IMG/VR virus record: IMGVR_UViG_3300029711_000003
Span: 36,538-100,537 of that record
Strand: one strand, 5' to 3'
DNA: 64,000 nucleotides
From: a virus
Of the stretch, positions 2,994-62,611 are shown one piece after another; position 1 is the first letter of the stretch; each line of letters starts with the position of its first letter. A program made the position numbers and the translations under genes. The notes under the pieces were generated by a model. That model worked only from the letters and a program-made list of their open reading frames with translations, searched no databases and was not told where the DNA came from.

Positions 2994-4186
2994 TAACGAA
3001 AATAACATCAGTAGATGAATTGAAGCAAATATGGTTGGAGATATTTCTCAACAAAACCGATAAGGTGAGTGACGTTTCGGATGAGTCAGTTTTGAACGGT
3101 ATTGCATACGGATGCGGAAAACTTGCTCAAAGAACATTGGCTAATCAAGCTATCATTGAAGGTCATATCTTTCCTGATACTGCTTATGGAGATTATCTTG
3201 ACCAGTTAGCTGCTATTCGTGGCGTAGCTCCGAGATTTGGTGCAACGGCAAGCTCAACTTATGTTAGAGTGATTGCTGATGCTGGAACGTCTTATTTAGC
3301 AGGAACACATCAGTTTACTTCTACTTCGGGAATTGTATTTGTACCCGAAAAGAGCGTGACGGTTGGTGAAAATGGATATGCTTATGTTAAGGTAAGAAGT
3401 TTGCAGAGCGGATTGTCTGCTAATGTAGATGCACTTTCCATAAACCAAGTGTCTCCAATTCCTGAGGGTCATATAAATTGTACAAATGAGTATGCTGCAA
3501 CTGGAGGTCGTGACCAAGAAGATGATGAACTGTTCCGACAGAGGATAAAAGAAAGTATAAATCAATTGTCAAGAACAACGCTGTCTTATCTTGAGCAAGT
3601 TTTCATGAAAATCAATAACAATGTTTTAAGGCTGTTCAAAGGTAGTACGGACGAAAGCGGACGTTTGAATTTGATTGTAGTTTCAGTAAACGGACAAGAT
3701 TTCACGGAAGATGAGTTCAATGAAATTCTCAGCCGTTCTGAAGAATATCTTTCTTTGTCCGAGCTTTTGAGAACTTCTACAGATTATGCTTTGAAGCTCA
3801 ATAATGTTGACTGGCTTACAGTTGACGTTGAGTTCCGAGTAGATTTTGACCCTGCTTATGACCAAGACGAAATTCGCAAGAACATACAGATTCAAATGTC
3901 AAAACTTTTTGACTATCGTTTTTGGCAATATGGTGATAAGGTAGAATGGGAAAATTTGTTGTATGCCGCTAAGAATGTTGAGGGTGTTAGATACGTGCCT
4001 GATACACACTTTTCTCCGCACGCTGATATAAATGTACCGAAATATCAATTGCCACGCATTAGAGGATTTGTATTGAGAGATTTGGATGGCAATATCATAG
4101 AAGACAATGGCGGCGTATTGAGTGAGTTCTATTATCCCAATGAGCCTGATGATTCATTTTCAAGTTCTGTTTTAATGACTATTTGA
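2990..4186 (+). CDS. baseplate J-like protein (P2 gpJ / T4 gp6 family)
   Basis: Start moved to ATG 2990 (ATGA overlap with the previous stop); the track start 2939 lies inside the previous gene. Carries the signature ATGGRDQEDDELFRQRI (GG.D.E.DE.LR.R of Baseplate_J). Follows the gp25-like gene. Confidence 0.7.
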   Translation: MITKITSVDELKQIWLEIFLNKTDKVSDVSDESVLNGIAYGCGKLAQRTLANQAIIEGHIFPDTAYGDYLDQLAAIRGVAPRFGATASSTYVRVIADAGTSYLAGTHQFTSTSGIVFVPEKSVTVGENGYAYVKVRSLQSGLSANVDALSINQVSPIPEGHINCTNEYAATGGRDQEDDELFRQRIKESINQLSRTTLSYLEQVFMKINNNVLRLFKGSTDESGRLNLIVVSVNGQDFTEDEFNEILSRSEEYLSLSELLRTSTDYALKLNNVDWLTVDVEFRVDFDPAYDQDEIRKNIQIQMSKLFDYRFWQYGDKVEWENLLYAAKNVEGVRYVPDTHFSPHADINVPKYQLPRIRGFVLRDLDGNIIEDNGGVLSEFYYPNEPDDSFSSSVLMTI

Positions 4187-4187
4187 T

Positions 4188-4493
4188 ATGAGAACGGAAG
4201 TAAGTGTAAAAACGACAACCGAAGTTGACACCAAAACTGGCGATTTTCTTATAAGTTGTTTTGCTGATATGAACGAAGATGGGTCAAAAACTCCTTCTAT
4301 TTACAAGTCAGATGTTTTAGACAGTACTAAGATAATTGACAATGTTTCGGGAAAAGAGGGAGAATTGATGTTGACCTATTCGGGAGATACGGTTGGTGAA
4401 ATCAACGATGACGGTGAACTGGTAATAAATCCTGACGGTGATGACGTCAATAAGTACAATAAACAAGATGAAAACTTGATATATGAAGGATAG
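4188..4493 (+). CDS. hypothetical acidic protein (baseplate/fibre module)
   Basis: 101 aa. ATG 1 nt after the J-like stop. 11-nt overlap with the next gene. Confidence 0.5.
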   Translation: MRTEVSVKTTTEVDTKTGDFLISCFADMNEDGSKTPSIYKSDVLDSTKIIDNVSGKEGELMLTYSGDTVGEINDDGELVINPDGDDVNKYNKQDENLIYEG

Positions 4494-6168
4494 TATATTA
4501 CAAGCAATAGGTGATGTTCTTATCATTGATGTTGTTCCTAAGATAAACGGACGTATCCAATTCACGGAGTATTCGGACGTATGGGAAGGAATAACAGATG
4601 AAAGGACGGTGAACAAAGAGTTCCGTGTTTCAGCAGACGGAGTTTTTTGGAGTAATTGGTTGGCTTTAACAAATGAAAATCTTGCCAACGGTCAATTCGT
4701 TGCCAACGGTCAATTCACCATCCAACTCCGATTTACCCGTACTGGTACAGATGAAACTGGAGTAATAGAGTTCAAAACAATAGACTTCTATGGGTCAAGG
4801 GAGGAAATTCAATTTGTCGCTCCTACCTTGTCTTCCAGTATATTCGCTGATATTGTTGGTACAGACGGTTTACGTCAATTGGAAGAAAATTTATTCAAGA
4901 AGCTGTATTACAGAGGCATTTTGCCCGATTACATAATCAGAGCTGCTAATTCAGATGCTGAAGAAGATGCTGACTTTATTGATGTGTTTTATAGCGTGGC
5001 ACGTTTCTTCGCTATAATGATACGTTTCTTCACGAGATTTGAAAATTTCAAAGACGATTTTGATTTGATGCGTGAAAACGTAAGACAATATGGCTTGTAC
5101 TTTGATGAATCAAATATCACTCTGGAAGAGCTTCAATTTCTTTCTCAGCATCTGTTCGATGAGATACGAAAGAGAGGAACAGTGATGATATTTAAGCGTC
5201 AGGGTGACGTTGTAAATGGTCAACCGCTGCCCATAGATGGAGAATTTATAAGACTTCTAAGAAGTAAGCCGAGCGATGAGTTGTTGTATGAGAATGTTCC
5301 GTTGTATAAGGTAGGTTGGTGTCTTGGACAATGTTCTCCTATGTATCGTGGCACTTCTCAAGCCTACTATTTGAACAAGACTAAGGAAAACACAGAAGAT
5401 TTTGTTGATATCAATAACTTCATTATAACTAATAGCGGCAGAGGAAATTATGAGTTGCAGACATTCAACAATAAAAAGGTTTTGCGACTTTTCCAAACAA
5501 CTACTTCAAACACCACTGTCGGTTTAGGTCGTGTGAACGAAGATACGGAGGTATCAATTGATGATTTAATTGTAGTTGATTCACGTTTAGATTATGAAAT
5601 AACATTCGCTTTCCAAGTAGTTGGTAGTGGTTCTTCAAATAACAAATTACTGTTTGGAGTAGAAGGATTTGACATTTTAGGCAATAGGTTGAACGATGCT
5701 TTCATAACTCCTAATGGTGACCAAATATCGGAAACTTTTGTTTTGGAAAGTTTGTCTAAATGGAAAAGGAACAATTGGTATTATGCCAGAGGAATTTTGC
5801 ACGCTTATTCATCTGTTAACATGGATGAAAATCTTACAAATTTAGGATTTGGCACCAATTTGTATTTCAACAATTCATTTGTTAAATACATTCTGCCCAA
5901 GATACAGATAAGCGGAACAGCTACATTTGACGTGAAGATTTGGGACTACAAAGTAAGACCGCTGGTAAGAGGAACGAACATATTGCCGTTAAAAAGCGGT
6001 GAGGAAAATTCTCATAGTCTTGGTTTCATACAAAGCCAAAGGATATTCTACAGCTATGTTAGAAACAACAATAATAGTCAAAGCAAGGATGAAATAACAG
6101 ATATTATAGAAAAGTATTTGTTACCATATAACACAACAGATATATTTGTTTTCATGAGTAATTATTAA
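4483..6168 (+). CDS. baseplate-distal / tail-fibre-associated structural protein
   Basis: 561 aa. Positioned after the J-like gene. Contains an in-frame 18-bp tandem duplication (ANGQFV ANGQFT, 4684-4719). No catalytic motif recognised. Confidence 0.45.
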   Translation: MKDSILQAIGDVLIIDVVPKINGRIQFTEYSDVWEGITDERTVNKEFRVSADGVFWSNWLALTNENLANGQFVANGQFTIQLRFTRTGTDETGVIEFKTIDFYGSREEIQFVAPTLSSSIFADIVGTDGLRQLEENLFKKLYYRGILPDYIIRAANSDAEEDADFIDVFYSVARFFAIMIRFFTRFENFKDDFDLMRENVRQYGLYFDESNITLEELQFLSQHLFDEIRKRGTVMIFKRQGDVVNGQPLPIDGEFIRLLRSKPSDELLYENVPLYKVGWCLGQCSPMYRGTSQAYYLNKTKENTEDFVDINNFIITNSGRGNYELQTFNNKKVLRLFQTTTSNTTVGLGRVNEDTEVSIDDLIVVDSRLDYEITFAFQVVGSGSSNNKLLFGVEGFDILGNRLNDAFITPNGDQISETFVLESLSKWKRNNWYYARGILHAYSSVNMDENLTNLGFGTNLYFNNSFVKYILPKIQISGTATFDVKIWDYKVRPLVRGTNILPLKSGEENSHSLGFIQSQRIFYSYVRNNNNSQSKDEITDIIEKYLLPYNTTDIFVFMSNY

Positions 6169-11169: not shown

Positions 11170-13956
11170 ATGGCAGACAGAATTCAACAAAGGCGGGACA
11201 CCGCCGCAAGATGGAAGCAATACAATCCCATATTGCTTGAAGGTGAGGTAGGGTATGTGACCGATAACCCTAACCAGTATAAAATTGGCGATGGTGTTCA
11301 TACTTGGAATGAACTACCGCTACGTGGATTTGACGGAATACTTGTTCATGAGCTTGGAAACAGTCAGACAGCAGCAATGAGTCAACAAGGAGTTAGTTAT
11401 TCATTGCTTTTTCTTTTAAGAAGGGACGTATATTTTTCAGAATATTTTATTAATTCAAACCCTTCTTGGTTTTTAAACATAGGAGAAAAAATTGAAAAGT
11501 TTTCTCCATCATTATTTACAAAATTGTCTGATTATAAATCAAGCGAAGAACCACCTTTGGTTAATTATACAACATATGTAATAAAGAATGACACTACAGA
11601 CATTTTTTATGTGTATGTTAATTTTCGTTCTGATGCAAGATATTCTGACAACTTTAAATATTTAAAAGTTGCAATTTTTGATGAAAATGATAATAATACT
11701 GCAAATTCTTATGAAGATGGGAGTTTATTGCTTGGAGTTTATCCTAAAAATACTCTTGTTATATCTGGCAATACTTGGGTATCGGAGCCAAGAAGAATAT
11801 TATTACAAAACCTGATTTATGATTACTCTTATGATTCATATATTGAAAAAAATAAGAATAGCATTGGTAATTATGTAGAATCATATGAAAAAGTTAACCT
11901 ATTAAGTAATTATTTGATAACACAAAAAGAGGCAAACTGTTTTACAGAAGGTCATAGACTAAAGGTATTGGTAAAATGGGATGCTAATGTGGACATTGGA
12001 AATTATGCCTACATTACACAAGATATTGCTCCAAATTTTGATTTTAATTATAACTATCACTGGGAAATATATAATAAGGGGGATTATCCTATAACTATTA
12101 ACATAGGGTTAACAAAAGGTGTTCATGATTGGAGTGAAGGGTACATCTTTAAAAAAGAATCGGTGGTAATAAACCCAGGAGAGAAATTCTCATTTACAGC
12201 GAATAAATATGATATTGTTAAGAGTTATTATGACCTTAATGGTAGAGATAGAGGAAACATTTATGACCTTAATTTGCAATATACTTATATGCACACAGTA
12301 TTGTATGGAGATACTGGAGCAAATACTGATATTTTTTCTCATTCTGGCAATATAGAAGTATCAATGTATTATACAATAAACAATGATATATATGAGACAA
12401 ATACTGAAAATTCAAGAAATTCAGGTTGGTTAGTAGGTGGATTGCCTAAAAATGCAATATTTAGGGATGAAAATCCGAACAATAAAGATTCATTTACTAA
12501 GGATGCTATGTCTGTAATACAGATTGATTACAGAACAATAAAACTTATAACTAATATAACTTCAAGTGTTATGGGTTCTGTTTATAGGGGAATTTATTGG
12601 AGAATTTATTATAACAATCTTGAAGATTTGAAAGGAATATGGAGGCTTACAAGTAAGTATAACAAATATGACAATTGTCATATTCATTGGAATATATGTG
12701 ATTGGAGTCCTAATGAACATGACGTTATAGATATAGATAACCCAGAAGGAGCATATAAAGATTATGATTTATATTCTTTAATTACAAATTATAAGAGTGT
12801 GCATTCAGAAGATGGAAAGTGGACAGGAATACTTGAGAATCAGGGATTTTTATATATATCATTTCTGAATTATAATAAAGATGGATATTTTTCAGAATTT
12901 GAAGATATATTAACATTAGATTTCTTACCAAATGATTCAAAGGTTATTGCTTCAGAGTTCACTCCGCAAGCAGAAGAAAGAATTTTACAAATATCTCAAG
13001 ATGGAACTGCTAACAAAACATTGATTACAAATTGGGGTGATAGTCTAACAGCTGGAGCAGGTTCATCAAATCATGATAACCAATCAATAGTATTATCAGC
13101 AATTAGAGATAAAGGTTATCCTGATTTAAGTCTATCAGATACCCAAGATATTACATATAGTATAATGATGCAAGCACTTCTTGGTGATGACTATAATGTT
13201 ATGAATTGTGGCGTAGGAGGAGAAAATATCAATACTATTGCGGCAAGACAAGGAGCAACCTATTTGATTACTACAAATGACTTTACTCTTCCATCTGATA
13301 CAACTCCCATACAAATAGGAGATTACACAACAAGATTAATGACTCCATGGGGAAGACAGGCATCCCCTTTACTACAGGGGGATGGAAACTCTGTCAATCC
13401 ATGTTATGTAGAGGGAATAGAATGTACACTTAAATGGACTGGAACATCTTGGTCAGATAGTAATGGAACATATACTATTCAAAGGGTTGCTACTGGCGAT
13501 AGAGAAATAAAATTTTCAAATAAAACGCCAATTATATTATACGGTTCTCAATTAAGTTCAAATGCAAAAATAGCAGTATTATGGTGCTGGCAGAATGGAG
13601 GGTATAATGATGATAATGACTTGATTGAAAAGTTAGATAAAATGATTTCTACTTTACAAACAAATAAATATCTCATAATAGGACTTCATTCAGGAGATAC
13701 CTCAACAAGAGAAACGCAAGAAAATGCTTTATCTTCTAAATATGGCGGAAAGTTCTTTAATTGGAGGCAATATATTTCAACAAATGGAATGTATGATTTT
13801 GGCTTAACTCCTACTGAAGAAGATTTAACTGCAATGTCTAAAGGTGAATGTCCTAAATCTTTACTGAAAGATAATGTTCATCTTAAAGCAGCTGGATATG
13901 CAATACTTGGATTCAAGATAATTGAGAGGTTCAAGGCTTTGGGATATGTTTCTTGA
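11170..13956 (+). CDS. tail fibre/spike with C-terminal SGNH (GDSL) esterase domain
   Basis: 928 aa. The N-terminus IQQRRDTAARWKQYNPILLEGEVGYVTDNPNQYKIGDGVHTWNELP is the conserved fibre-anchor motif of HylP/Mtd-type phage fibres. The C-terminal ~300 aa carry SGNH blocks: NWGDSLTAGAGS (block I), GVGGENI, and DNVHLKAAGY (block V). Confidence 0.7.
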   Translation: MADRIQQRRDTAARWKQYNPILLEGEVGYVTDNPNQYKIGDGVHTWNELPLRGFDGILVHELGNSQTAAMSQQGVSYSLLFLLRRDVYFSEYFINSNPSWFLNIGEKIEKFSPSLFTKLSDYKSSEEPPLVNYTTYVIKNDTTDIFYVYVNFRSDARYSDNFKYLKVAIFDENDNNTANSYEDGSLLLGVYPKNTLVISGNTWVSEPRRILLQNLIYDYSYDSYIEKNKNSIGNYVESYEKVNLLSNYLITQKEANCFTEGHRLKVLVKWDANVDIGNYAYITQDIAPNFDFNYNYHWEIYNKGDYPITINIGLTKGVHDWSEGYIFKKESVVINPGEKFSFTANKYDIVKSYYDLNGRDRGNIYDLNLQYTYMHTVLYGDTGANTDIFSHSGNIEVSMYYTINNDIYETNTENSRNSGWLVGGLPKNAIFRDENPNNKDSFTKDAMSVIQIDYRTIKLITNITSSVMGSVYRGIYWRIYYNNLEDLKGIWRLTSKYNKYDNCHIHWNICDWSPNEHDVIDIDNPEGAYKDYDLYSLITNYKSVHSEDGKWTGILENQGFLYISFLNYNKDGYFSEFEDILTLDFLPNDSKVIASEFTPQAEERILQISQDGTANKTLITNWGDSLTAGAGSSNHDNQSIVLSAIRDKGYPDLSLSDTQDITYSIMMQALLGDDYNVMNCGVGGENINTIAARQGATYLITTNDFTLPSDTTPIQIGDYTTRLMTPWGRQASPLLQGDGNSVNPCYVEGIECTLKWTGTSWSDSNGTYTIQRVATGDREIKFSNKTPIILYGSQLSSNAKIAVLWCWQNGGYNDDNDLIEKLDKMISTLQTNKYLIIGLHSGDTSTRETQENALSSKYGGKFFNWRQYISTNGMYDFGLTPTEEDLTAMSKGECPKSLLKDNVHLKAAGYAILGFKIIERFKALGYVS

Positions 13957-35424: not shown

Positions 35425-36909
35425 ATGACACCTTCAAAGTATCAAACAGCTATTTATAAAGCATTTCAATTAACAAAAAGAGATATAAACATTTCAGCAG
35501 TAGCGGGAAGCGGAAAAACTACAACGCTGTTAGAATTGTTAAAGTTCGTACCGAGAGGAATGAAAACATTGTTTCTTGCTTTCAACAAAAGTATTGTTGA
35601 GGAATTGAAGAGCAGAAACGAAAATAAAGAAGCTGCTATAATGACAATTCATTCTTGCGGTTGGCGAGCTATTATGATACGATATGGTTCAAGAGCTAAG
35701 ATGAATCCAAATAAAACAATTGCTAAGACTGAAATTGTATTGGAGCAAAATAAAATTCCTGCTAAAAGATATAGTTATTTTTTCTATGTAATTCCGAAGC
35801 TGTTAGACCTTATGCGTTGTAACATGACGGAAAACACTTTGGAGGCAATTCGTGAGCTTGCTATGTATTATGACGTAGATATAGATGATGAGGATATTCC
35901 GTTGGTTCAGCGTGCCTTCAAATTGGTAGTAGGAGATAAGAGTCAGTTTGACTTTATGGACATGATATATGTTCCAGTTACTGACCCGTCAGTTAGGCTG
36001 AAAAAGTATGACTATGTTTTCTGCGATGAAAGTCAGGACTTTTCAATTTGTCAACATGAGTTCATTAAGCGTTGTATAAATCGTAGGGGCAGGCTGATAA
36101 CGGTGGGGGATGGCAACCAAGCAATCTATGGATTTGCGGGGGCAGATGCTAATAGCTATGATAAATTAGCATCCATAAATGGTCAGGCAATACGTTTGCC
36201 GCTTTCGGTATCGTACCGTTGTGCAAAAGCAATCGTTCTGGAAGCTCAGAGATATGTTCCATCAATATCATATGCTCCCAACGCTGAAGAAGGGAAAGTT
36301 GATATAAATAGTTTGACCACTATTCGGGAAGGCGATTGGATACTGTGTAGAAACTTGAAGCCTTTGATTCAAGCGTATCTTTGGTTGATAAAGAATAAGA
36401 TAAAATGTAAGATAAGGGGTAAGGATATTGCCGAAAACATTGTAAATCTTATAAGAAAGACTGGAGCAAAAACTCTTGATGGGCTTATGAATGCGTTGGA
36501 AATAGAGCGAAATAAATTGCTTGATAAGCTGACGAAAAAAGGAATAAGGAAACCGAGCCTACACCCGAAGATGGAAGTGCTGGAGCAAAAGCAGGAAGTG
36601 ATTGCTTTTCTGTCCGATGAAGTTACGAGCGTAGATGGATTGATAAAGTTACTTGAAGGCATATTCAGTGATGATACAGACGGTATATTGCTAAGTACAA
36701 TCCATAAAGCAAAGGGATTGGAAAATGAGCGTATATTCTTCATTTGTCCAGAGTTGATACCGAGTAAGTATGCTACGCAAGATTGGCAGATAGAGCAAGA
36801 ATGGCACTTAAAGTATGTAGCGGTGACCAGAGCTAAAAGAGAATTGATATATGTTCCTCAAAGTGTATTTGATAATGATTTGATGAGCAACGTTACTATT
36901 GACAAATAA
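35425..36909 (+). CDS. UvrD/PcrA-like SF1 helicase
   Basis: 494 aa. AVAGSGKTTTL, VFCDESQDFS, TIHKAKGLE, YVAVTRAK. Confidence 0.8.
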   Translation: MTPSKYQTAIYKAFQLTKRDINISAVAGSGKTTTLLELLKFVPRGMKTLFLAFNKSIVEELKSRNENKEAAIMTIHSCGWRAIMIRYGSRAKMNPNKTIAKTEIVLEQNKIPAKRYSYFFYVIPKLLDLMRCNMTENTLEAIRELAMYYDVDIDDEDIPLVQRAFKLVVGDKSQFDFMDMIYVPVTDPSVRLKKYDYVFCDESQDFSICQHEFIKRCINRRGRLITVGDGNQAIYGFAGADANSYDKLASINGQAIRLPLSVSYRCAKAIVLEAQRYVPSISYAPNAEEGKVDINSLTTIREGDWILCRNLKPLIQAYLWLIKNKIKCKIRGKDIAENIVNLIRKTGAKTLDGLMNALEIERNKLLDKLTKKGIRKPSLHPKMEVLEQKQEVIAFLSDEVTSVDGLIKLLEGIFSDDTDGILLSTIHKAKGLENERIFFICPELIPSKYATQDWQIEQEWHLKYVAVTRAKRELIYVPQSVFDNDLMSNVTIDK

Positions 36910-53056: not shown

Positions 53057-55840
53057 ATGTTTGATTTAGATACAATAGAACAAAAAGATAAGAAGCTGGT
53101 AAGCATTCTTCAGTCGCCAACTCATCAATTGGAATGTCTTTCAATAGTTGACGAGATAATTGATAGCATGGATGACAAAGGCATACTTGAACTAATGTCT
53201 GGTTCGGACGGAGATTTGGACTATATTTTAGATTGTATGTTGAAGGATACATTCCAAGTAATGTACACTGGCAATCCTCATATTGATTTTGCTCCGAGAT
53301 ATACTGATAGGTTATCTCAAGCAGTAGAAGAAATATTGAGGTGCAAGAATTTGACATACTTCATTACTTCGGTAATGCCCGATTTTCAGTTGTCTTGGCA
53401 TCATTTGGAATGGGGAGATTTGGTTCACCGATATAAAAAGTTGTGCATAGAAGCTGCCCGTGACCACGGCAAGTGCGAAGCAGTTGGAACAAAGGTAAGA
53501 ATGTATGACGGCTCCATTAAGAAAGTTGAAGATTTGATAATTGGAGATTTGCTAATGGGAGTTGATTCAAAGCCAAGAAAGATTATTCATCTTCATAGAG
53601 GCGTTGATGACAATATGTTTAGAATTGACCAAAGTAAAGGTGATAGTTATACAGTCAATTCTAAACATATTTGTACCGTCATTAAAATAGGTAAGAGAGG
53701 AAAGAATTTGACAGAACACGAAAAGAATATTGTTGATATTGACATTCCAACTCTTTTATCTTATTCAAAGAACTTTCTTTCAGAACGCATACGTGGTTTT
53801 AAGGTCGCTTGGGAAGCTCCTGAAAGAAAAGTATTGATTGAACCTTATTTCTTGGGGTATTGGTTAGGCGATGGAAATTCAAATAATCAAAAAATAACTA
53901 TTGAAGATGTAGAGGTTGTTCGGTATTTAGAAGAATATGCTGAAAGACTTGGTATGACAACTTCAAGAAAAGGATTGTTGTCTAACATTAGGAGAAAAAT
54001 AATATCTTGTAAAACCAAAAACAAGTTAAACATGTTTTTGAAAGCATATAACTTGATATATAACAAACATATTCCTAATGTTTACATACATAATTCAAGA
54101 AAAGTTCGTTTGGAATTGTTAGCTGGACTTTTAGATTCAGATGGAGATTTATGGTGCAATGGTTATCATTTTGGCAATATAAATAAAAGATTGGTTGAGG
54201 ATGTAAAAAATCTTGCTGATAGTTTGGGTTTCAGAACTTATATGTCAGGCGGTAGAAAGTACCATAAACAACTGAAGAGAATGTATGATTGGTGGGGAGT
54301 TTCTATTTCAGGAAAGATTGATGAAATACCTGTAAAAATACCAAGAAAAAAGATTGAATATAATTGGGGAAATAAGGCTTCAAATAAAGATTGGGGAGTC
54401 ATAGATGGAATAGCACCAAGTGTCGTGTCTTCTATAAAAATAACAAATGTTGGTAAAGGAGAATATGTTTCAATTACCACTGATGGAGACCATAGATTTT
54501 TGCTTGCTGATGGTACAGTTACTCATAATTCTTACTATTTCTCCAATGCTTATGCCGCTTGGCAATTGTATAAGTATGCTAAGCCGAAGGGTACTCAATT
54601 TTCAGCAAGACCTACAAAGTCAAATTCAAACCGTGGATATTTGTTCAGTTTCTCTTTGCAACAATCCGTTGACCTTATGGAGATATTGAAAAACACGATT
54701 GAAAGTAATGATATATTGAAAGAACGTCTGTACCCTGATTCCAAAGATAAGAGCGGAGCGTGGGCAAGTACGAATATAGTATGTAAGAACGGAGCGAGAT
54801 TGACGTGTAAGGGATTTGGGTCATCAGTACGTGGTGCTCACCCATATTGGATAGTAGTAGATGATGGATTGAAAGATAACGTCATCTACAGTCAATTACA
54901 GAGGCAGAAAAGCATTGATTATTTCCATTCGGTAATTATGAACATGCTTGTACCAGGTGGTCAAATAATTGTAGTTGGCACTCCTTTCCATGCTTCAGAC
55001 TTATACGGAGATTTGAAAAGCAAAAGCATACATGCTACTGGTAATAAGAAAGGATGGTTTGTAATTGAATATCCTGCTATCTTTCCTGACGGTCGCATTC
55101 TTTGGCCACAACGTTGGAGTTTCTTTGACCTTATGGACAAGAAAGCTACGCAAGGAAACATCATTTTCAGTAGGGAAAATCTTTGTCGTCCAATCACCAA
55201 TGAAAGTTCTATCTTTCCGCTCAAGGTTTTGGAGCGTTCTTTGGTACGTATGGAGAATTATGTTCTTGTTCGCAATAGGGATGACTTTCCGATTAAGTTC
55301 AACAAAGTTGTCGTTGGATGTGACTTTGCTATTTCTGCAAATGTTGGTACAGACTACACTGTGTTTACGGTTTGGGGAGTTGACGATGAAACTGGAGAGC
55401 GTTGGTTGTTGCATTTCTATCGGGATAAAGGAAAGACGTTTCACGAGCAGATGCAAGTATTGAAAGGCATAAATGTGAGATTCAGACCTGATACAATGAT
55501 TTTGGAACAAAACACGTTCCAACAGATATTCGTACAAGAAAGTGATAAACAGGGGCTGCCAGTTATAGGACATACCACTGGTATAGATAAGTATGATTTG
55601 AAGACAGGCTGGCCTGGACTTGCCATAGATTTTGAACGTGGCAAAATACATATACCGATTGGAGATAAGTATTCACAAGACGTGAAAGACCTTATTTTCT
55701 CAGACCTTGGTTCGGTAGCATTTACCGATAAGGGATTGGAGAGCGTAGGAGAACACGATGATATCAGTTCTTCTTTCTGGCTTGCTAAGTTAGGAGCTAA
55801 CTTGATTACCACAGGATTCAAGTACACTTTCCTGGGTTAA
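53057..55840 (+). CDS. terL: terminase large subunit, interrupted by an intein
   Basis: 927 aa. SD AGGAGG at 53048-53053. Walker A is split as AARDHGK|intein|S. Walker B WIVVDDGL. Coupling motif VVGTPFH. Nuclease Asp motifs VVGCDFAIS and EHDDISSSFWLA. Confidence 0.85.
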   Translation: MFDLDTIEQKDKKLVSILQSPTHQLECLSIVDEIIDSMDDKGILELMSGSDGDLDYILDCMLKDTFQVMYTGNPHIDFAPRYTDRLSQAVEEILRCKNLTYFITSVMPDFQLSWHHLEWGDLVHRYKKLCIEAARDHGKCEAVGTKVRMYDGSIKKVEDLIIGDLLMGVDSKPRKIIHLHRGVDDNMFRIDQSKGDSYTVNSKHICTVIKIGKRGKNLTEHEKNIVDIDIPTLLSYSKNFLSERIRGFKVAWEAPERKVLIEPYFLGYWLGDGNSNNQKITIEDVEVVRYLEEYAERLGMTTSRKGLLSNIRRKIISCKTKNKLNMFLKAYNLIYNKHIPNVYIHNSRKVRLELLAGLLDSDGDLWCNGYHFGNINKRLVEDVKNLADSLGFRTYMSGGRKYHKQLKRMYDWWGVSISGKIDEIPVKIPRKKIEYNWGNKASNKDWGVIDGIAPSVVSSIKITNVGKGEYVSITTDGDHRFLLADGTVTHNSYYFSNAYAAWQLYKYAKPKGTQFSARPTKSNSNRGYLFSFSLQQSVDLMEILKNTIESNDILKERLYPDSKDKSGAWASTNIVCKNGARLTCKGFGSSVRGAHPYWIVVDDGLKDNVIYSQLQRQKSIDYFHSVIMNMLVPGGQIIVVGTPFHASDLYGDLKSKSIHATGNKKGWFVIEYPAIFPDGRILWPQRWSFFDLMDKKATQGNIIFSRENLCRPITNESSIFPLKVLERSLVRMENYVLVRNRDDFPIKFNKVVVGCDFAISANVGTDYTVFTVWGVDDETGERWLLHFYRDKGKTFHEQMQVLKGINVRFRPDTMILEQNTFQQIFVQESDKQGLPVIGHTTGIDKYDLKTGWPGLAIDFERGKIHIPIGDKYSQDVKDLIFSDLGSVAFTDKGLESVGEHDDISSSFWLAKLGANLITTGFKYTFLG
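53474..54529 (+). mobile_element. intein with LAGLIDADG homing-endonuclease domain (352 aa) in the TerL P-loop
   Basis: Begins CEAVGTKVRMYDGSIKKVEDLIIGD (block A Cys1). LAGLIDADG motifs LGYWLGDGNS and LLAGLLDSDGD. Ends GTVTHN, followed by the +1 Ser (SYYFS). Confidence 0.85.
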
Positions 55841-59142: not shown

Positions 59143-59173
59143 AAAAATACGCTTTGCGGCGTATTTTTTTTTT
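59143..59173 (+). terminator. rho-independent terminator
   Basis: AAAAATACGC-TTTGCG-GCGTATTTTT, then an extended T-run. Confidence 0.75.
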
Positions 59174-59204: not shown

Positions 59205-59477
59205 ATGAAAAATTTGTATGTTGATAAAAATTCAAGAGCAGTTCAATGTTCTATCATTGGATATGGCAAGAATTTTTCAGTTGGCGAAATTACTGATAGT
59301 GAAGTTCACGGATTCATAAGAGTGAAAAATATTGGAGAAGATATGGCGATATTCAGATATTCTAATTATAAGGATAGCGATGGAATTTATTTGTCGCCAG
59401 GTGAAACTGAATATTTCTTTGTTGATGATGACCATTCAATAGAAATAGTTCAAGGTACACTCAATATAATGTATTAA
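59205..59477 (+). CDS. hypothetical small beta-rich protein
   Basis: 90 aa. First gene of the Ig-like/BACON operon. Confidence 0.5.
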   Translation: MKNLYVDKNSRAVQCSIIGYGKNFSVGEITDSEVHGFIRVKNIGEDMAIFRYSNYKDSDGIYLSPGETEYFFVDDDHSIEIVQGTLNIMY

Positions 59478-59479
59478 TT

Positions 59480-59893
59480 ATGTTGTTTGGTTTTAGATTT
59501 GGCAAATTAGGCAATAAAAAAAATAATCTTTCTAATAAGCCTATTGTTTCATTTGATACTTCTACATTAATTATATTGGACCAAAATGGAAATTCTGTAG
59601 TTGGTGCAAAAGTAGAAGTATCAAATGGAGCGAGCGTTTTTATATCTTATACTGATGAAAACGGGAAAGCCGAAATAAAAGGTAAGTATGGAAATATTTA
59701 TACTTTAACAATTAGCGGAGAAAACATTGAAACAAAGGTAATATATGATTGGCAATTTCAAGAAAGTTACAACATTCAAGTAGAAACAAAGCTGTTTTTA
59801 GAAGTCAAGCCTGAATATATTTGGTTGACACGCGGCAATAATTATACCGATACAGTAGATGTTATGTCGAATGTAGATTGGTTTATTCAATAA
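59480..59893 (+). CDS. CarboxypepD_reg-like domain + N-terminal half of a BACON-type domain
   Basis: 137 aa. ILDQNGNSVVGAKVEVSNG...YTDENGKAEIKGKYGNIYTLTISGEN (prealbumin-like). Ends FLEVKPEYIWLTRGNNYTDTVDVMSNVDWFIQ*. Confidence 0.55.
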   Translation: MLFGFRFGKLGNKKNNLSNKPIVSFDTSTLIILDQNGNSVVGAKVEVSNGASVFISYTDENGKAEIKGKYGNIYTLTISGENIETKVIYDWQFQESYNIQVETKLFLEVKPEYIWLTRGNNYTDTVDVMSNVDWFIQ

Positions 59894-59912
59894 TCTTTTA
59901 ACATTTTTCATT

Positions 59913-60530
59913 ATGGCAACAAAACCATCATGGCTAACAACCAACCCTGCTACTGGCGGCAGCGGTAATGGAGCCATTCAAAACAGCGCCAGTGAACACA
60001 CAGGTCGTGTGGCAAGAACGGGAACGGTTACTGTAACCGCAACTGGGTTATCAACTCCTAAGACTTACAAAGTCACTCAAACTCCGAAGGCTGAATTTGT
60101 CAGCTTTGATAATGGAGCTGAAATGGCAGCTGGTAAGTCAGGCGGAGCGTTGACAATCCAAGGTAAGAGTAACTCAGCCAAACTTACTTTCTCTTGGGTA
60201 GGTGACGTTGACGATGTTGATATTCCAGAGTCATATCAAGCAAATGGCACTCCTACTAATAATGGAGATGCGATTGAAGGTGACCCTGGTGCTCAAAATG
60301 AGTATGCTTTCTCTATTCAATTGACGCTGCCTGAAAACGAAACGGTTGATGAAGTTGTAAGAACATTGCTTGTAACGGCAGACGGAGCTCAAACGGCTCA
60401 AATTGCTATCAAGCAGGCTGCTGGTGACCCGACGCTTGAAATTGAGCCTACTGAAATCACCATTCCGCAGGCTGGTACTCCTGCCGTATCTGTACAGGTT
60501 ACTTCTAACACAACTTGGACAATATCGTAA
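59913..60530 (+). CDS. BACON/Ig-like repeat protein (C-terminal half-domain + full domain + N-terminal half-domain)
   Basis: 205 aa. Starts PSWLTTNPATGGSGNGAIQ...RTGTVTVTATGLSTPKTYKVTQ. Ends LEIEPTEITIPQAGTPAVSVQVTSNTTWTIS*. Confidence 0.6.
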   Translation: MATKPSWLTTNPATGGSGNGAIQNSASEHTGRVARTGTVTVTATGLSTPKTYKVTQTPKAEFVSFDNGAEMAAGKSGGALTIQGKSNSAKLTFSWVGDVDDVDIPESYQANGTPTNNGDAIEGDPGAQNEYAFSIQLTLPENETVDEVVRTLLVTADGAQTAQIAIKQAAGDPTLEIEPTEITIPQAGTPAVSVQVTSNTTWTIS

Positions 60531-60539
60531 GGTAGATTC

Positions 60540-60854
60540 ATGGAAAAGACCATTGATTGGAAAGATGGGAATGGCGTCATAACCGTAACTTATAATGGTG
60601 ACGGTGCAGGCGTCATTTCCATTACAAGCACTCCTAACAATACTGGCGCTGGTAGAAGTCAAGAAATAACTATTGAGACAACCTATCCGTATGCTGTAAA
60701 GAAAACCTTATTGGTTTATCAGGAAGGCACTGGTTCAATCGATGGCGGCAATGCTTCAACCAATGAATTTGACAATACGATTGATTGTTCAACGGCAGAC
60801 AGTATGTTTGGAGAAGGAGATACCTTGTATGACGGTGGAGGGGCAAATTTATAG
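60540..60854 (+). CDS. C-terminal half of a BACON-type domain + DGG-motif tail
   Basis: 104 aa, in the same frame as the previous ORF (TAA + 3 codons between them). IDWKDGNGVITVTYNGDGAGVISITSTPNNTGAGRSQEITIETT..KKTLLVYQEG, then IDGGNAST...YDGGGANL. Confidence 0.55.
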   Translation: MEKTIDWKDGNGVITVTYNGDGAGVISITSTPNNTGAGRSQEITIETTYPYAVKKTLLVYQEGTGSIDGGNASTNEFDNTIDCSTADSMFGEGDTLYDGGGANL

Positions 60855-60988
60855 TTAAAATTTGCCCAAAATAGTTAAAAAGCGAAATTTCTACAAAGAT
60901 TTTTCGCTTTTTATTTTGCCGTTTGCGAGAAAAGTCGTACCTTCGCTTCAGAATTGTAAATAACATTGTAAATTAAATTGTAAAAATT
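60851..60988 (+). promoter_or_regulatory. class-1 terminator-promoter cassette, copy D
   Basis: AGTTAAAATTTGCCCAAAATAGTTAAAA box. AGCGAAA/TTTCGCT hairpin plus T-run. TTTG (60915-60918), 19-nt spacer, then TACCTTCG (60938-60945). ATTGTAAA at 60953, 60965 and 60977, with the ATG at 60989 (exact 12-nt register). Confidence 0.65.
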
Positions 60989-61747
60989 ATGGAATTAGAC
61001 AGCGTATTAAAGAAACTGAGAAAACTTCAAAAGTTGTATGAAGGTGCTAAGAAGATAAACTCAGAGGGTGAAGCATTAGCAGCCGCAGCGGCAATCCAAA
61101 GACTTCTTACTATGTACAATTTATCAATGGATGAAATTGGCAAAGAAGAAGAACGGAAAGATGAAATCTTGGAAGAGAAGATGAGCGGATACACTTACAA
61201 GAGTATCGGTGGTGAGTGGGAGTTCCGTTTGTTGTATGTTCTTTGCAAGTGGAATTTTTGCAAATGCTTTCAAATGGGCGGAACATACAAGAAGCTGATA
61301 ATTTTCGGCAAAAAGGAAAACATGGAAACCGTTAAGTGGTTGCGCGATGTGCTTGCTGAGAGATTTGTAGAATTTTCCAAGAAGCGTTTCAAGGAATACA
61401 AGGAAACTATGGAATATGCTATGAAGCCTATCAGCTTGGATAAGTATCAGAGAAGTTACCTCATGGGATGCGCAGCTGGGCTGGATGCTAAACTGAAAGA
61501 AGAAAGTGACCGAGATAAGAAAGAAGATGCTGATTTCAGTGCAAAGGTTACTGCCCTTGTGGTTCGTAATGATACGGCTGTTACGGAGTATATTCATAAC
61601 AAATATCACGTAGGAAGGGGAAGGAGAAGACAAGAGAATTATGATTCAGCAAGAGCTTACGGATACAAAGACGGTAAGAATACCAGTATCAACAGACCGA
61701 TTTCAGGAGGTCAAGCTCAAGCAAGTAAAGTTGGGCTGTTAAAATAA
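60989..61747 (+). CDS. DUF2786-like protein
   Basis: 252 aa. N-terminal LKKLRKLQKLYEGAKKINSEGEALAAAAAIQRLLTMYNLSMDEI fits the KI.KLLAL......NEAE.A..KAQ.L pattern. Confidence 0.45.
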   Translation: MELDSVLKKLRKLQKLYEGAKKINSEGEALAAAAAIQRLLTMYNLSMDEIGKEEERKDEILEEKMSGYTYKSIGGEWEFRLLYVLCKWNFCKCFQMGGTYKKLIIFGKKENMETVKWLRDVLAERFVEFSKKRFKEYKETMEYAMKPISLDKYQRSYLMGCAAGLDAKLKEESDRDKKEDADFSAKVTALVVRNDTAVTEYIHNKYHVGRGRRRQENYDSARAYGYKDGKNTSINRPISGGQAQASKVGLLK

Positions 61748-61843: not shown

Positions 61844-62611
61844 ATGATAGGCATAATATACAAATTCACTATCTTGACCAGTTTGAAGTATTTTGGTCAC
61901 AAACCATTCTACGTTGGACAATTTTCTCGCAATGTTTCAATGGAACAATTTTTGAGAAATGATTGTTTTGTTTATGACGGTAGCGGTAAGACTTGGGAAA
62001 GATTTTATGAAGGACTAAGAAGAAAGTTTCCAACTTGCTGGAGAAAGTTAATCAAAAGAGAAATATTGTTTTATTCAAATAATTGCTCTCAAAAAGTTCT
62101 TGACGCTATGGAAGCGTATTACATCAAGAAAGAGAAAGCGCATTATTCATACAAGTTAGGAGGCTGTAATATATTATGGGGCACCGCTAATAAGTTCGGT
62201 TCAGGAAGCCCAATGAAAGACCCAATGGTTGCTAAGAAGGTTACTGATAAGATAAAAGGAAGAAAGGGTGCTAAGCGTTCTGCTATTGGAAGAATGAATA
62301 TGTCAATAGCTGCAAAGAAGTCTTGGAAAAATGCAGAAAGCAGAAGAAAGAAAGTTTCAAATGCTATATCTGAATATATGAGAAATGGTGGAGCAAAGAA
62401 ATTATCGAATGAAAGAAAAGGCAAAAAATTTTCTATTGAAACGAGAATGAAAATATCAAAAAATCATGCTGATTTCAAAGCTTCAAAACATCCGTTATTC
62501 GGTGTTAAGTATGACTGGATAAATAATGGTGTAATCAACAAAAGGTTAAACAAAGGTGATAAAATGCCAGCAGGGTTTATTTATGGTAGAATTAAAAGAA
62601 AGAAAATATGA
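61844..62611 (+). CDS. GIY-YIG homing endonuclease with NUMOD3-like repeats (Seg/I-TevI-like)
   Basis: 255 aa. GIIYKFT...PFYVGQ (GIY-YIG). Conserved Glu in LDAMEAYYI, Asn in GGCNILWG. Repeated basic DNA-binding motifs (GSPMKDPMVAKKVTDKIKGRKG, FSIETRMKISKNH). Confidence 0.7.
   Translation: MIGIIYKFTILTSLKYFGHKPFYVGQFSRNVSMEQFLRNDCFVYDGSGKTWERFYEGLRRKFPTCWRKLIKREILFYSNNCSQKVLDAMEAYYIKKEKAHYSYKLGGCNILWGTANKFGSGSPMKDPMVAKKVTDKIKGRKGAKRSAIGRMNMSIAAKKSWKNAESRRKKVSNAISEYMRNGGAKKLSNERKGKKFSIETRMKISKNHADFKASKHPLFGVKYDWINNGVINKRLNKGDKMPAGFIYGRIKRKKI

Follow-up and report, generated by a model that had tools for sequence, protein, structure and literature searches.

A 64,000-nucleotide (nt) stretch of viral DNA (positions 36,538 to 100,537 of IMG/VR record IMGVR_UViG_3300029711_000003; we refer to the whole stretch as the window) contains three consecutive open reading frames (ORFs), ORF1 to ORF3, at positions 59480 to 60854. 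Their boundaries cut an immunoglobulin-like (Ig-like) domain of the sugar-binding BACON type in half, not once but twice. The locus raises the question of how a domain that is divided between two genes becomes a folded unit. The reading that we favour, with moderate confidence, is that ORF1–3 are a conserved three-gene cassette encoding a fibre or adhesin of a Bacteroidota phage, which would be modular, Ig-like (BACON) and joined non-covalently as the half-domains complete each other in trans. The ORF coordinates, the translations and the junction consisting of TAA, GGTAGATTC and ATG were exactly as described in a first-pass annotation of the sequence.

Whether the termini of the three proteins are halves of one domain was examined with an 85-position BACON hidden Markov model (HMM) made independently from 440 contiguous domains, with scans run at -Z 1. 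ORF1 (59480..59893, 137 aa; all features described for the cassette are on the plus strand) matched at residues 106–136 (59795..59887), which correspond to HMM positions 2–31 (14.1 bits, 2e-6) and stop 1 residue short of the ORF1 stop. ORF2 (59913..60530, 205 aa) matched at both ends. Its residues 4–56 (59922..60080) align with positions 35–85 (45.6 bits), whereas residues 173–205 (60429..60527), which run up to the stop codon, align with positions 1–32 (26.2 bits). In ORF3 (60540..60854, 104 aa), residues 14–61 correspond to positions 39–85 (15.1 bits, 1e-6). Below, the first halves at the C-termini of ORF1 and ORF2 are called the N1 and N2 connectors, and the second halves at the N-termini of ORF2 and ORF3 (residues 1–62 of the latter; 60540..60725) the C1 and C2 connectors. 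The cut position is about HMM 32–35 at all four termini, confirming the earlier claim that both gene junctions divide a BACON domain at the same place. Plain concatenation gave a single full-length domain match in each case: 67.7 bits for ORF1+ORF2 (HMM positions 2–85), 38.1 bits for ORF2+ORF3 (positions 1–85), 74.7 bits for ORF2+ORF2 and 28.8 bits for ORF1+ORF3. No contiguous beta-sandwich of ~85 residues is present at any of these termini. The sole complete Ig-like unit is the BACON-like middle domain of ORF2 (residues 58–171; 60084..60425), which lies between C1 and N2. Foldseek searches of the PDB gave generic Ig-like and partial BACON matches only, including the BACON-bearing BoGH5A (3zmr), and a PDB sequence search with the ORF2 profile gave no match at E up to 1.

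The first-pass annotation had proposed comparing the ORFs and their conceptual fusions with the Pfam families BACON and BACON_2, and this comparison bore out the division of the domain. ORF2 residues 3–56 matched positions 7–60 of the 61 positions of BACON (PF13004) with 30.8 bits (cutoff 25), which places them in the family, and also matched positions 42–89 of 94 of BACON_2 (PF19190). In the conceptual fusion the BACON_2 match reached back over junction 1. ORF3 residues 15–62 gave a weak Pfam BACON match that was under threshold (14.4 bits), and ORF1 gave no Pfam BACON match. Another HMM was made from 208 ORF2-family members by joining their C-terminal 34 residues to their N-terminal 57 residues. 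This pseudo-domain model matched 452 contiguous domains of long multi-BACON proteins end to end, with aligned lengths of 81–88, indicating that there is no indel at the joint; the 440 domains of the 85-position HMM were drawn from these. We also considered the opposite register, in which the second half would precede the first and each ORF would contain whole domains. It was rejected because the BACON arrays of 42 long multi-BACON proteins start at HMM position 6 or lower in 38 of the 42 and end at position 80 or higher in 39, with no halves left over, and because removal of ORF2 residues 1–57 destabilised the far C-terminal segment of the predicted structure rather than the adjacent one. Matches to a half alone were all at the extreme termini of ORF2-type proteins.

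Junction 1 (59894..59912), a 19-nt A/T-rich spacer across which the frame changes, is seamless in the domain HMM. Junction 2 (60528..60539) consists of TAA and 9 nt (GGTAGATTC) followed by ATG, with ORF2 and ORF3 in the same frame. The first-pass annotation was right about this arrangement, but junction 2 is not seamless because the concatenation holds ~9 extra residues. These surplus residues correspond to a conserved M..[IV]xW[KE]xGxG extension (M-x-K-T-I-x-W-K-x-G-x-G in ORF3). In alignments this extension falls on the Trp strand in the first half, which its M..[IV]xW part probably duplicates.

Comparison of fused and split versions in related phages, which had also been proposed, established that the split is conserved as a rule. 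ORF2 had 830 relatives in a set of 5.8 billion proteins, the best 120 of which were all 196–205 aa long, and ORF2-type proteins of ~200 aa with the same termini occupied dozens of clusters below 50% identity. Relatives of ORF1 (27, mostly 134–138 aa) and of ORF3 (9, 94–143 aa) were likewise separate genes. When 1.84 billion representatives at 50% identity were searched with a profile, 2,733 matches were obtained, and architectures were read for the best 150. Among these, 96 open with the second half and close with the first half (150–1304 aa, mostly 197–226 aa), 41 have neither half and are long multi-BACON proteins with contiguous domains, and just 13 have one half alone, most of them being fragments. 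We then surveyed 90 ORF2-type units in 88 loci plus the window. The upstream ORF ended in a first half, 0–3 residues before its stop, at 83 of the 90 units, and the downstream ORF opened with an ORF3-type second half in 84 of 85. When computed against L009, a 91% identical relative, the ratio of nonsynonymous to synonymous substitution rates (dN/dS) was 0.14 for ORF1, 0.22 for ORF2 and 0.32 for ORF3, and 0.05 for the N2 half of ORF2. Conservation was seen at the protein level, and synonymous sites were saturated in distant relatives. The three-gene arrangement is conserved and under purifying selection, with two BACON domains each encoded on two polypeptides. Conservation of the split over many unrelated gut phages suggests that the proteins complete each other's half-domains.

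The connectors behaved differently from the remainder of the proteins. Between lineages, only ORF1 residues ~101–136 and ORF3 residues ~3–63 were alignable. The length of ORF1-type proteins varies from 70 to 343 aa, and that of ORF3-type proteins is either 81–143 aa or, with a Gly-rich ALK_LTK_GRD region, 449–581 aa. The connectors alone are thus conserved, and the cargo domains are swapped. The cargo of ORF1 in the window is a CarboxypepD_reg-like (transthyretin-like) beta-sandwich at residues 32–91 (59573..59752) that falls below the Pfam threshold (25.6 bits, cutoff 32.3), and PF13620 is a precomputed annotation on several ORF1 homologues. The C2 half of ORF3 is followed by an acidic Gly/Asp-rich tail (IDGG...YDGGGA; 60726..60851). 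The C-terminus of P0129, a 131-aa protein whose N-terminal region is unrelated, shares 90% identity with this tail (IDGG..NTIDC.TADS...G.D.LYDGGGA). The tail is therefore a module in its own right and may be a docking peptide.

HMMs distinguished two classes of first half, N1 (ORF1-type) and N2 (ORF2 C-terminus), and two classes of second half, C1 (ORF2 N-terminus) and C2 (ORF3-type). Natural fusions were found both at junction 1 and between units. In P0174 (456 aa) junction 1 is fused such that N1 is contiguous with C1 (internal domain scores of 29.1 for N1 versus 15.6 for N2, and 52.8 for C1 versus 2.2 for C2), its C-terminus is still N2, and an 89-aa C2-type gene lies 4 nt downstream. C1 is already joined to the contiguous N1, which leaves the terminal N2 without a free partner on the same chain, so that N2 could be completed only in trans. 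In the tandem-unit proteins P0159, P0180, P0184, P0190, P0208 and P0160, N2 is contiguous with C1 inside the protein while the terminal halves are retained. Locus L071 contains two separate ORF2-type genes in tandem (3337–3936 and 3995–4609), each with a second half, a middle domain and a first half and 58 nt apart; this pair corresponds, in split form, to fused two-unit proteins such as P0159.

The split arrangement occurs in several unrelated phage groups, including the phage of the window, crAss-like phages and contigs in which the cassette adjoins a tail-sheath-like gene. In two of the latter (L089, 1959–5538; L091, 1943–6415), a tail-sheath-like gene directly follows the cassette. The cassette there encodes a large protein (845 aa or 1304 aa) that runs from C1 to N2 and, directly upstream of it, a smaller protein with a conserved N-terminus (MxxxxxxxxKxAADxxGITPTDIG...) and an N2-type half at its end. 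The half of the smaller protein in L091 is ~74% identical to the C-terminal half of the large protein itself. Such an anchor protein is what the initiator of a head-to-tail chain would look like. Flg_new repeats are present in P0264. Among the crAss-like phages, both flanking genes carry a half in cr111_1 (Steigviridae), whereas in cr127_1 (Crevaviridae) the upstream gene does and a second half was not detected in the downstream gene. In phage DP SC_6_H4 the downstream gene is clearly ORF3-type, and the first half of the upstream gene was seen by eye only, having been missed by the HMM scan. Trp30 is replaced by Phe in both first halves of cr111_1 (L002, 1362–2759) and DP SC_6_H4 (L003, 2256–3865), and Arg66 of both second halves is replaced by Gln, Asn or Thr. 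In this count, made by eye in two related phages, the changes appear to be concerted across all four halves.

The model that we propose is as follows. The C-terminus of one protein would supply the first ~33 residues of a BACON domain (the strands up to the SNxxW motif), and the N-terminus of the next protein would supply the remaining ~52 residues (WL..P.SG.GNG...R...Q). The proteins would be translated separately, often with coupling via TAATG overlaps in relatives, and the halves would then complete each other in trans. ORF1 would be a donor only (cargo X plus N1), ORF2 a bridge or extender (C1, middle domain and N2) and ORF3 an acceptor only (C2 plus cargo Y), giving a polar chain with the stoichiometry ORF1-(ORF2)n-ORF3, where n is at least 1. 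Conservation of such plug-and-socket connectors would make the cargo ends exchangeable while leaving the joint unchanged. Attachment to the virion, and a role in its decoration or as an adhesin, would be in keeping with the domain family and with published work on phage BACON and Ig-like proteins.

Could the three ORFs instead give rise to a single multi-BACON polypeptide? Recoding, which the first-pass annotation had listed as an option, would require readthrough of the TAA at 60528 and a +1 frameshift near 59877–59893. ORF2 and ORF3 are in frame and separated by only TAA plus 9 nt in the window and in L009, and fused relatives exist for junction 1. However, programmed readthrough or frameshifting is marked by a conserved frame relation and a recoding signal, whereas offsets of 0, 1 and 2 all occur at these junctions. 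The junction 1 spacers of relatives are 10–58 nt long before the ORF2 start, in all three frame offsets and after TAA (59), TGA (15) or TAG (9) as the ORF1-type stop. Gaps at junction 2 are −16, −1, 2, 3, 9, 28, 58 or 64 nt, in all frames, and the commonest form is a TAATG stop/start overlap that puts ORF3 in another frame. The TAA plus 9 nt form is common to the window and its near twin L009 only, and the L065–L070 group has TAA plus 3 nt, in frame. Since most relatives have ORF3 in another frame with the TAATG overlap, the in-frame TAA at junction 2 of the window, to which the first-pass annotation had drawn attention, is incidental. The recoded products also fit the domain less well. At junction 1 the +1 frame is closed upstream of 59877, and the frameshift product would place ~20 residues between the two Trp residues, compared with 7–9 in the fused relative and in the plain concatenation. 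Similarly, the readthrough product scored 33.4 bits with the 85-position HMM as compared to 38.1 bits for plain ORF2+ORF3. No tRNA genes were found in the 64-kb window, and hence no suppressor tRNA in the window. We regard recoding as very improbable. Stop-codon reassignment was rejected as well, given that all three stops are used at the junctions and that the window has no tRNA. The other explanation by way of a single gene, recent pseudogenisation or an error in assembly or sequencing, draws on nothing but the first impression of broken domains. The boundaries recur unchanged in hundreds of assemblies made independently and in clusters below 50% identity, many lineages have separate genes of equal length, all three pieces are under purifying selection, each ORF has its own ATG, and a likely terminator follows ORF3. 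Recent fragmentation, which had likewise been offered as an option, is refuted, and we assign it practically no probability.

The main rival to completion in trans is one that the first-pass annotation had overlooked when it listed intermolecular completion as its third option. ORF2-type proteins could be circular permutants that close on themselves, forming one BACON sandwich beside the middle domain, in which case ORF1 and ORF3 would pair together (N1 with C2) or carry unpaired tags. Several results weigh in this direction and hence against the chain. AlphaFold2 run on the monomer (ORF2, with 63 homologues as input), which tends to satisfy a complementary piece within the chain and so cannot tell closure in cis from pairing in trans, modelled ORF2 alone with a mean predicted local distance difference test (pLDDT) score of 95.2, a predicted template modelling (pTM) score of 0.83 and both termini above 90. 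When C1 was deleted (ORF2 residues 58–205), the middle domain kept a pLDDT of 87–97, the last 30 residues fell to 73, 69 and 72 and pTM was 0.76; the N2 half thus went from ~94 to ~71, a loss of ~23 points. As the C-terminal half loses confidence without the N-terminal half, the model closes ORF2 on itself, and ORF2 may simply do so. Mean-field direct coupling analysis on 208 family members, which had low power, gave a Mann-Whitney P of 0.086 with a within-half control correlation of about 0. The top-50 coupled pairs across the cut in the contiguous domains and those of ORF2's own termini overlapped by 7 versus 1.5 expected (P = 4e-4), the only significant signal and one that fits closure in cis or a homotypic head-to-tail contact as well as it fits the chain. 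Both halves are on one chain in the 96 proteins described above from the best 150 of the 2,733 matches, and N2 joined contiguously to C1 occurs naturally in the tandem-unit proteins. Gene content provides two further points. In csAssE-Sib (L001, 2989–3645) an ORF2-type gene that bears the annotation 'glycosyl hydrolase family 5 protein' and has a 12-residue tail past its first half stands alone between opposite-strand genes, with no adjoining partner gene. In addition, some loci (L089, L091 and cr127_1) have two first halves for one second half, no acceptor-only gene being adjacent in L089 and L091.

We nevertheless judge self-closure of ORF2-type proteins to be unlikely, although it deserves serious weight. 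It leaves unexplained the colinear donor-only and acceptor-only flanking genes in >90% of loci, and why N1 is the class that is fused to C1 in P0174. It also leaves unexplained why P0174 keeps N2 and a downstream C2 gene even though its contiguous N1 already completes C1. Closure of the proteins of 685–1304 aa would require a very large loop. Foldseek against BFVD identified homologues from crAss-like and 'Myoviridae sp.' metagenomic phages, one of which was annotated 'Cellulase', and those of 209–221 aa superposed only in part (template modelling score about 0.7, root-mean-square deviation 18), indicating that the predicted closure is not uniform. A further alternative is that the halves do not pair at all, being instead terminal tags that dock on another virion protein, or blocks of DNA-level homology for module swapping. 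The persistence of the connectors next to differing cargo would suit this explanation, as would the variable genome context, with nucleotide-metabolism genes near the cassette in the window and tail and lysis genes in L005. Yet conservation is at the protein level with synonymous sites saturated in distant relatives, the halves are exactly complementary within one fold and contiguous in fused relatives, the Trp and Arg residues changed to Phe and non-Arg together in all halves of two related phages, and an isolated half-sandwich of three or four strands would expose its hydrophobic core. We consider this alternative improbable. Intermolecular completion is the option best backed by the comparative evidence, namely the orphan halves, the fusions and the connector classes.

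A broader version of the trans-completion model is conceivable, and we advance it tentatively, considering it somewhat more apt to be wrong than right. Complementary half-BACON domains would constitute a chaperone-free, pilus-like assembly system of Bacteroidota phages. Initiators would have a first half only, extenders of 200–1300 aa would have a second half at the N-terminus and a first half at the C-terminus and would be able to polymerise head to tail, and terminators would possess nothing but a second half. The sequence of assembly would be dictated by two or more classes of connector (N1/C1 and N2/C2). The joint would serve as a universal one for cargo swapping, such that adhesin or receptor-binding modules would be exchanged among unrelated phages: crAss-like phages, the phage of the window with its Pol III-alpha-type polymerase, and phages in which the cassette is next to a tail-sheath-like gene.

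The finding combines two known kinds of system, phage BACON adhesins and assembly by fold complementation; what is new is the split between adjacent genes. The first-pass annotation knew of no split-BACON assembly, and our literature searches, which took in the crAss-BACON paper and the PhicrAss001 structural atlas, likewise brought up no account of a BACON or other Ig-like domain that is split between adjacent genes of a phage. A term search of the crAss-BACON paper (PMC6949934) showed no mention of split or truncated domains. Proteins with BACON repeats, such as crAssphage gp64, are known from phages and are represented by Pfam BACON (PF13004) and the 'viral BACON' family BACON_2 (PF19190) (de Jonge et al. 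2019, PMC6949934). Display of BACON and Ig-like proteins of gut phages on phage K1F confers epithelial adherence (bioRxiv 10.64898/2026.02.02.702849). The gp64-type proteins resemble the cassette in domain family, in belonging to phages with Bacteroidota hosts, in genes that are often near tail genes and in a presumed adhesion to glycans or mucus. Their domains, however, are contiguous within one ORF, whereas the cassette spreads each of two domains over neighbouring ORFs, with the cut always at one loop. Moreover, the gp64 type is characterised by tandem repeats in one large ORF with tail genes on its flanks, whereas the cassette in the window consists of three small ORFs that are flanked by ribonucleotide reductase and DUF2786/DUF7168 genes. 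In relatives, the cassette is located near tail-fibre and lysis genes.

In chaperone-usher pili and in the type V pili of Bacteroidota, an incomplete Ig-like fold is completed by a segment of the next subunit, giving polar chains with one-function subunits as tip or terminator. The proposed mode of action of the cassette resembles this donor-strand complementation in having incomplete complementary folds at opposite termini and a polar head-to-tail logic. In pili a single strand is donated and a chaperone and usher, or a protease, drives the exchange, whereas the cassette would donate ~33 of ~85 residues (about three strands). Furthermore, unlike pilus subunits, the cassette proteins would be cytoplasmic phage products; no signal peptide was seen by eye at the starts of ORF1–3. 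Ig-like domains are also reportedly appended to phage structural proteins by programmed frameshifting, as Fraser et al. are said to have described in 2006. Those domains are similar to the cassette in lying at the gene boundaries of phage structural genes, but they are whole domains with a conserved frame and a slippery site, in contrast to the variable frames and gaps of the cassette and a boundary that lies inside the domain. Circular permutation and fragment complementation of single domains are related too: in split-GFP type systems and split PH domains, one fold is rebuilt from two separately encoded fragments. Such cases are mostly engineered or isolated, whereas the split of the cassette occurs naturally, is widely conserved in genomes and comes with distinct classes of connector. 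Modular fibres provide another parallel, with gp34–37 of T4 joined end to end and branched tailspike adaptors in phages of the CBA120/G7C type. The head fibres of PhicrAss001 contain gp21 and gp29, the latter a small protein with a CATH 2.60.40.1120 (carboxypeptidase-regulatory-like) sandwich (PMC10172136). In these fibres small and medium proteins are joined non-covalently through conserved joints with exchangeable distal modules, as they would be in our reading of the cassette, and gp29 can be likened to ORF1, which is also small and has a carboxypeptidase-regulatory-like sandwich, albeit as a sub-threshold match. Modular fibres are joined by dedicated interaction domains or by trimeric N-terminal plugs rather than by the halves of one monomeric domain.

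If completion in trans is correct, the cassette would be a natural and widespread instance of a single small domain on two polypeptides serving as a joint, and it would add a new principle to the assembly of phage fibres and adhesins. The exchange of adhesion or receptor-binding modules among gut phages would then be explained, as would the many truncated-looking small 'BACON', 'lipocalin-like', 'cellulase' or 'GH5' proteins in gut-phage annotations. Engineering would also gain orthogonal connectors for proteins that are genetically encoded.

Two hairpin terminators bracket the cassette. Upstream, a terminator-like hairpin (59143..59168, plus strand) with an 11-bp stem followed by a T run is a possible 5′ boundary of the transcription unit. 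It is followed by a 90-aa ORF of unassigned function (59205..59477, plus strand), which had no match in the family scan and whose stop is 2 nt ahead of the ORF1 start, so that it is possibly co-transcribed with ORF1–3. Directly 3′ of ORF3, a stable hairpin with a U run (60867..60918, plus strand; −16.9 kcal/mol, z = −4.7) is likely an intrinsic terminator. The neighbours of the cassette in the window are ribonucleotide reductase, DUF2786/DUF7168 and homing-endonuclease-like genes, and in L005 the cassette lies between a GDSL-esterase fibre gene and an amidase gene. The bracketing terminators, together with settings that range from nucleotide metabolism and replication here to tail fibre and lysis in relatives, suggest a mobile, self-contained cassette. 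The neighbours that were scanned matched only RNR (ribonucleotide reductase)-insertion, DUF2786/DUF7168 or homing-endonuclease-like families, or nothing, and thus gave no chaperone or usher, although no systematic search for these was made.

The phage of the window has a Pol III-alpha polymerase that is distant kin of those in Chryseobacterium, Cellulophaga and Bacteroides phages. No GenBank phage showed nucleotide similarity to the window in either near or distant DNA searches, a protein search of GenBank phages with ORF1 detected no sequence relative, and neither ORF2 nor ORF3 matched a PHROGs family. The window does have a close relative, the IMG/VR contig behind L009 (64,782 bp). Every gene-like ORF of at least 150 aa in the window is on the plus strand. 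The DUF2786/DUF7168 gene 3′ of the cassette is at 60989–61747, and downstream of both a 255-aa ORF (61844–62611) matches the PHROG homing-endonuclease family phrog_314 (E = 3e-8). The large terminase ORF (53057–55840, 927 aa) contains a Hint domain at residues 141–206 and LAGLIDADG homing-endonuclease matches at residues 339–399, and this stretch sits between two terminase-homologous parts; the ORF most likely encodes an intein-bearing terminase. A 928-aa tail protein (11170–13956) has an N-terminal Mtd_N domain (33.7 bits), Mtd (major tropism determinant) being a target of diversity-generating retroelements.

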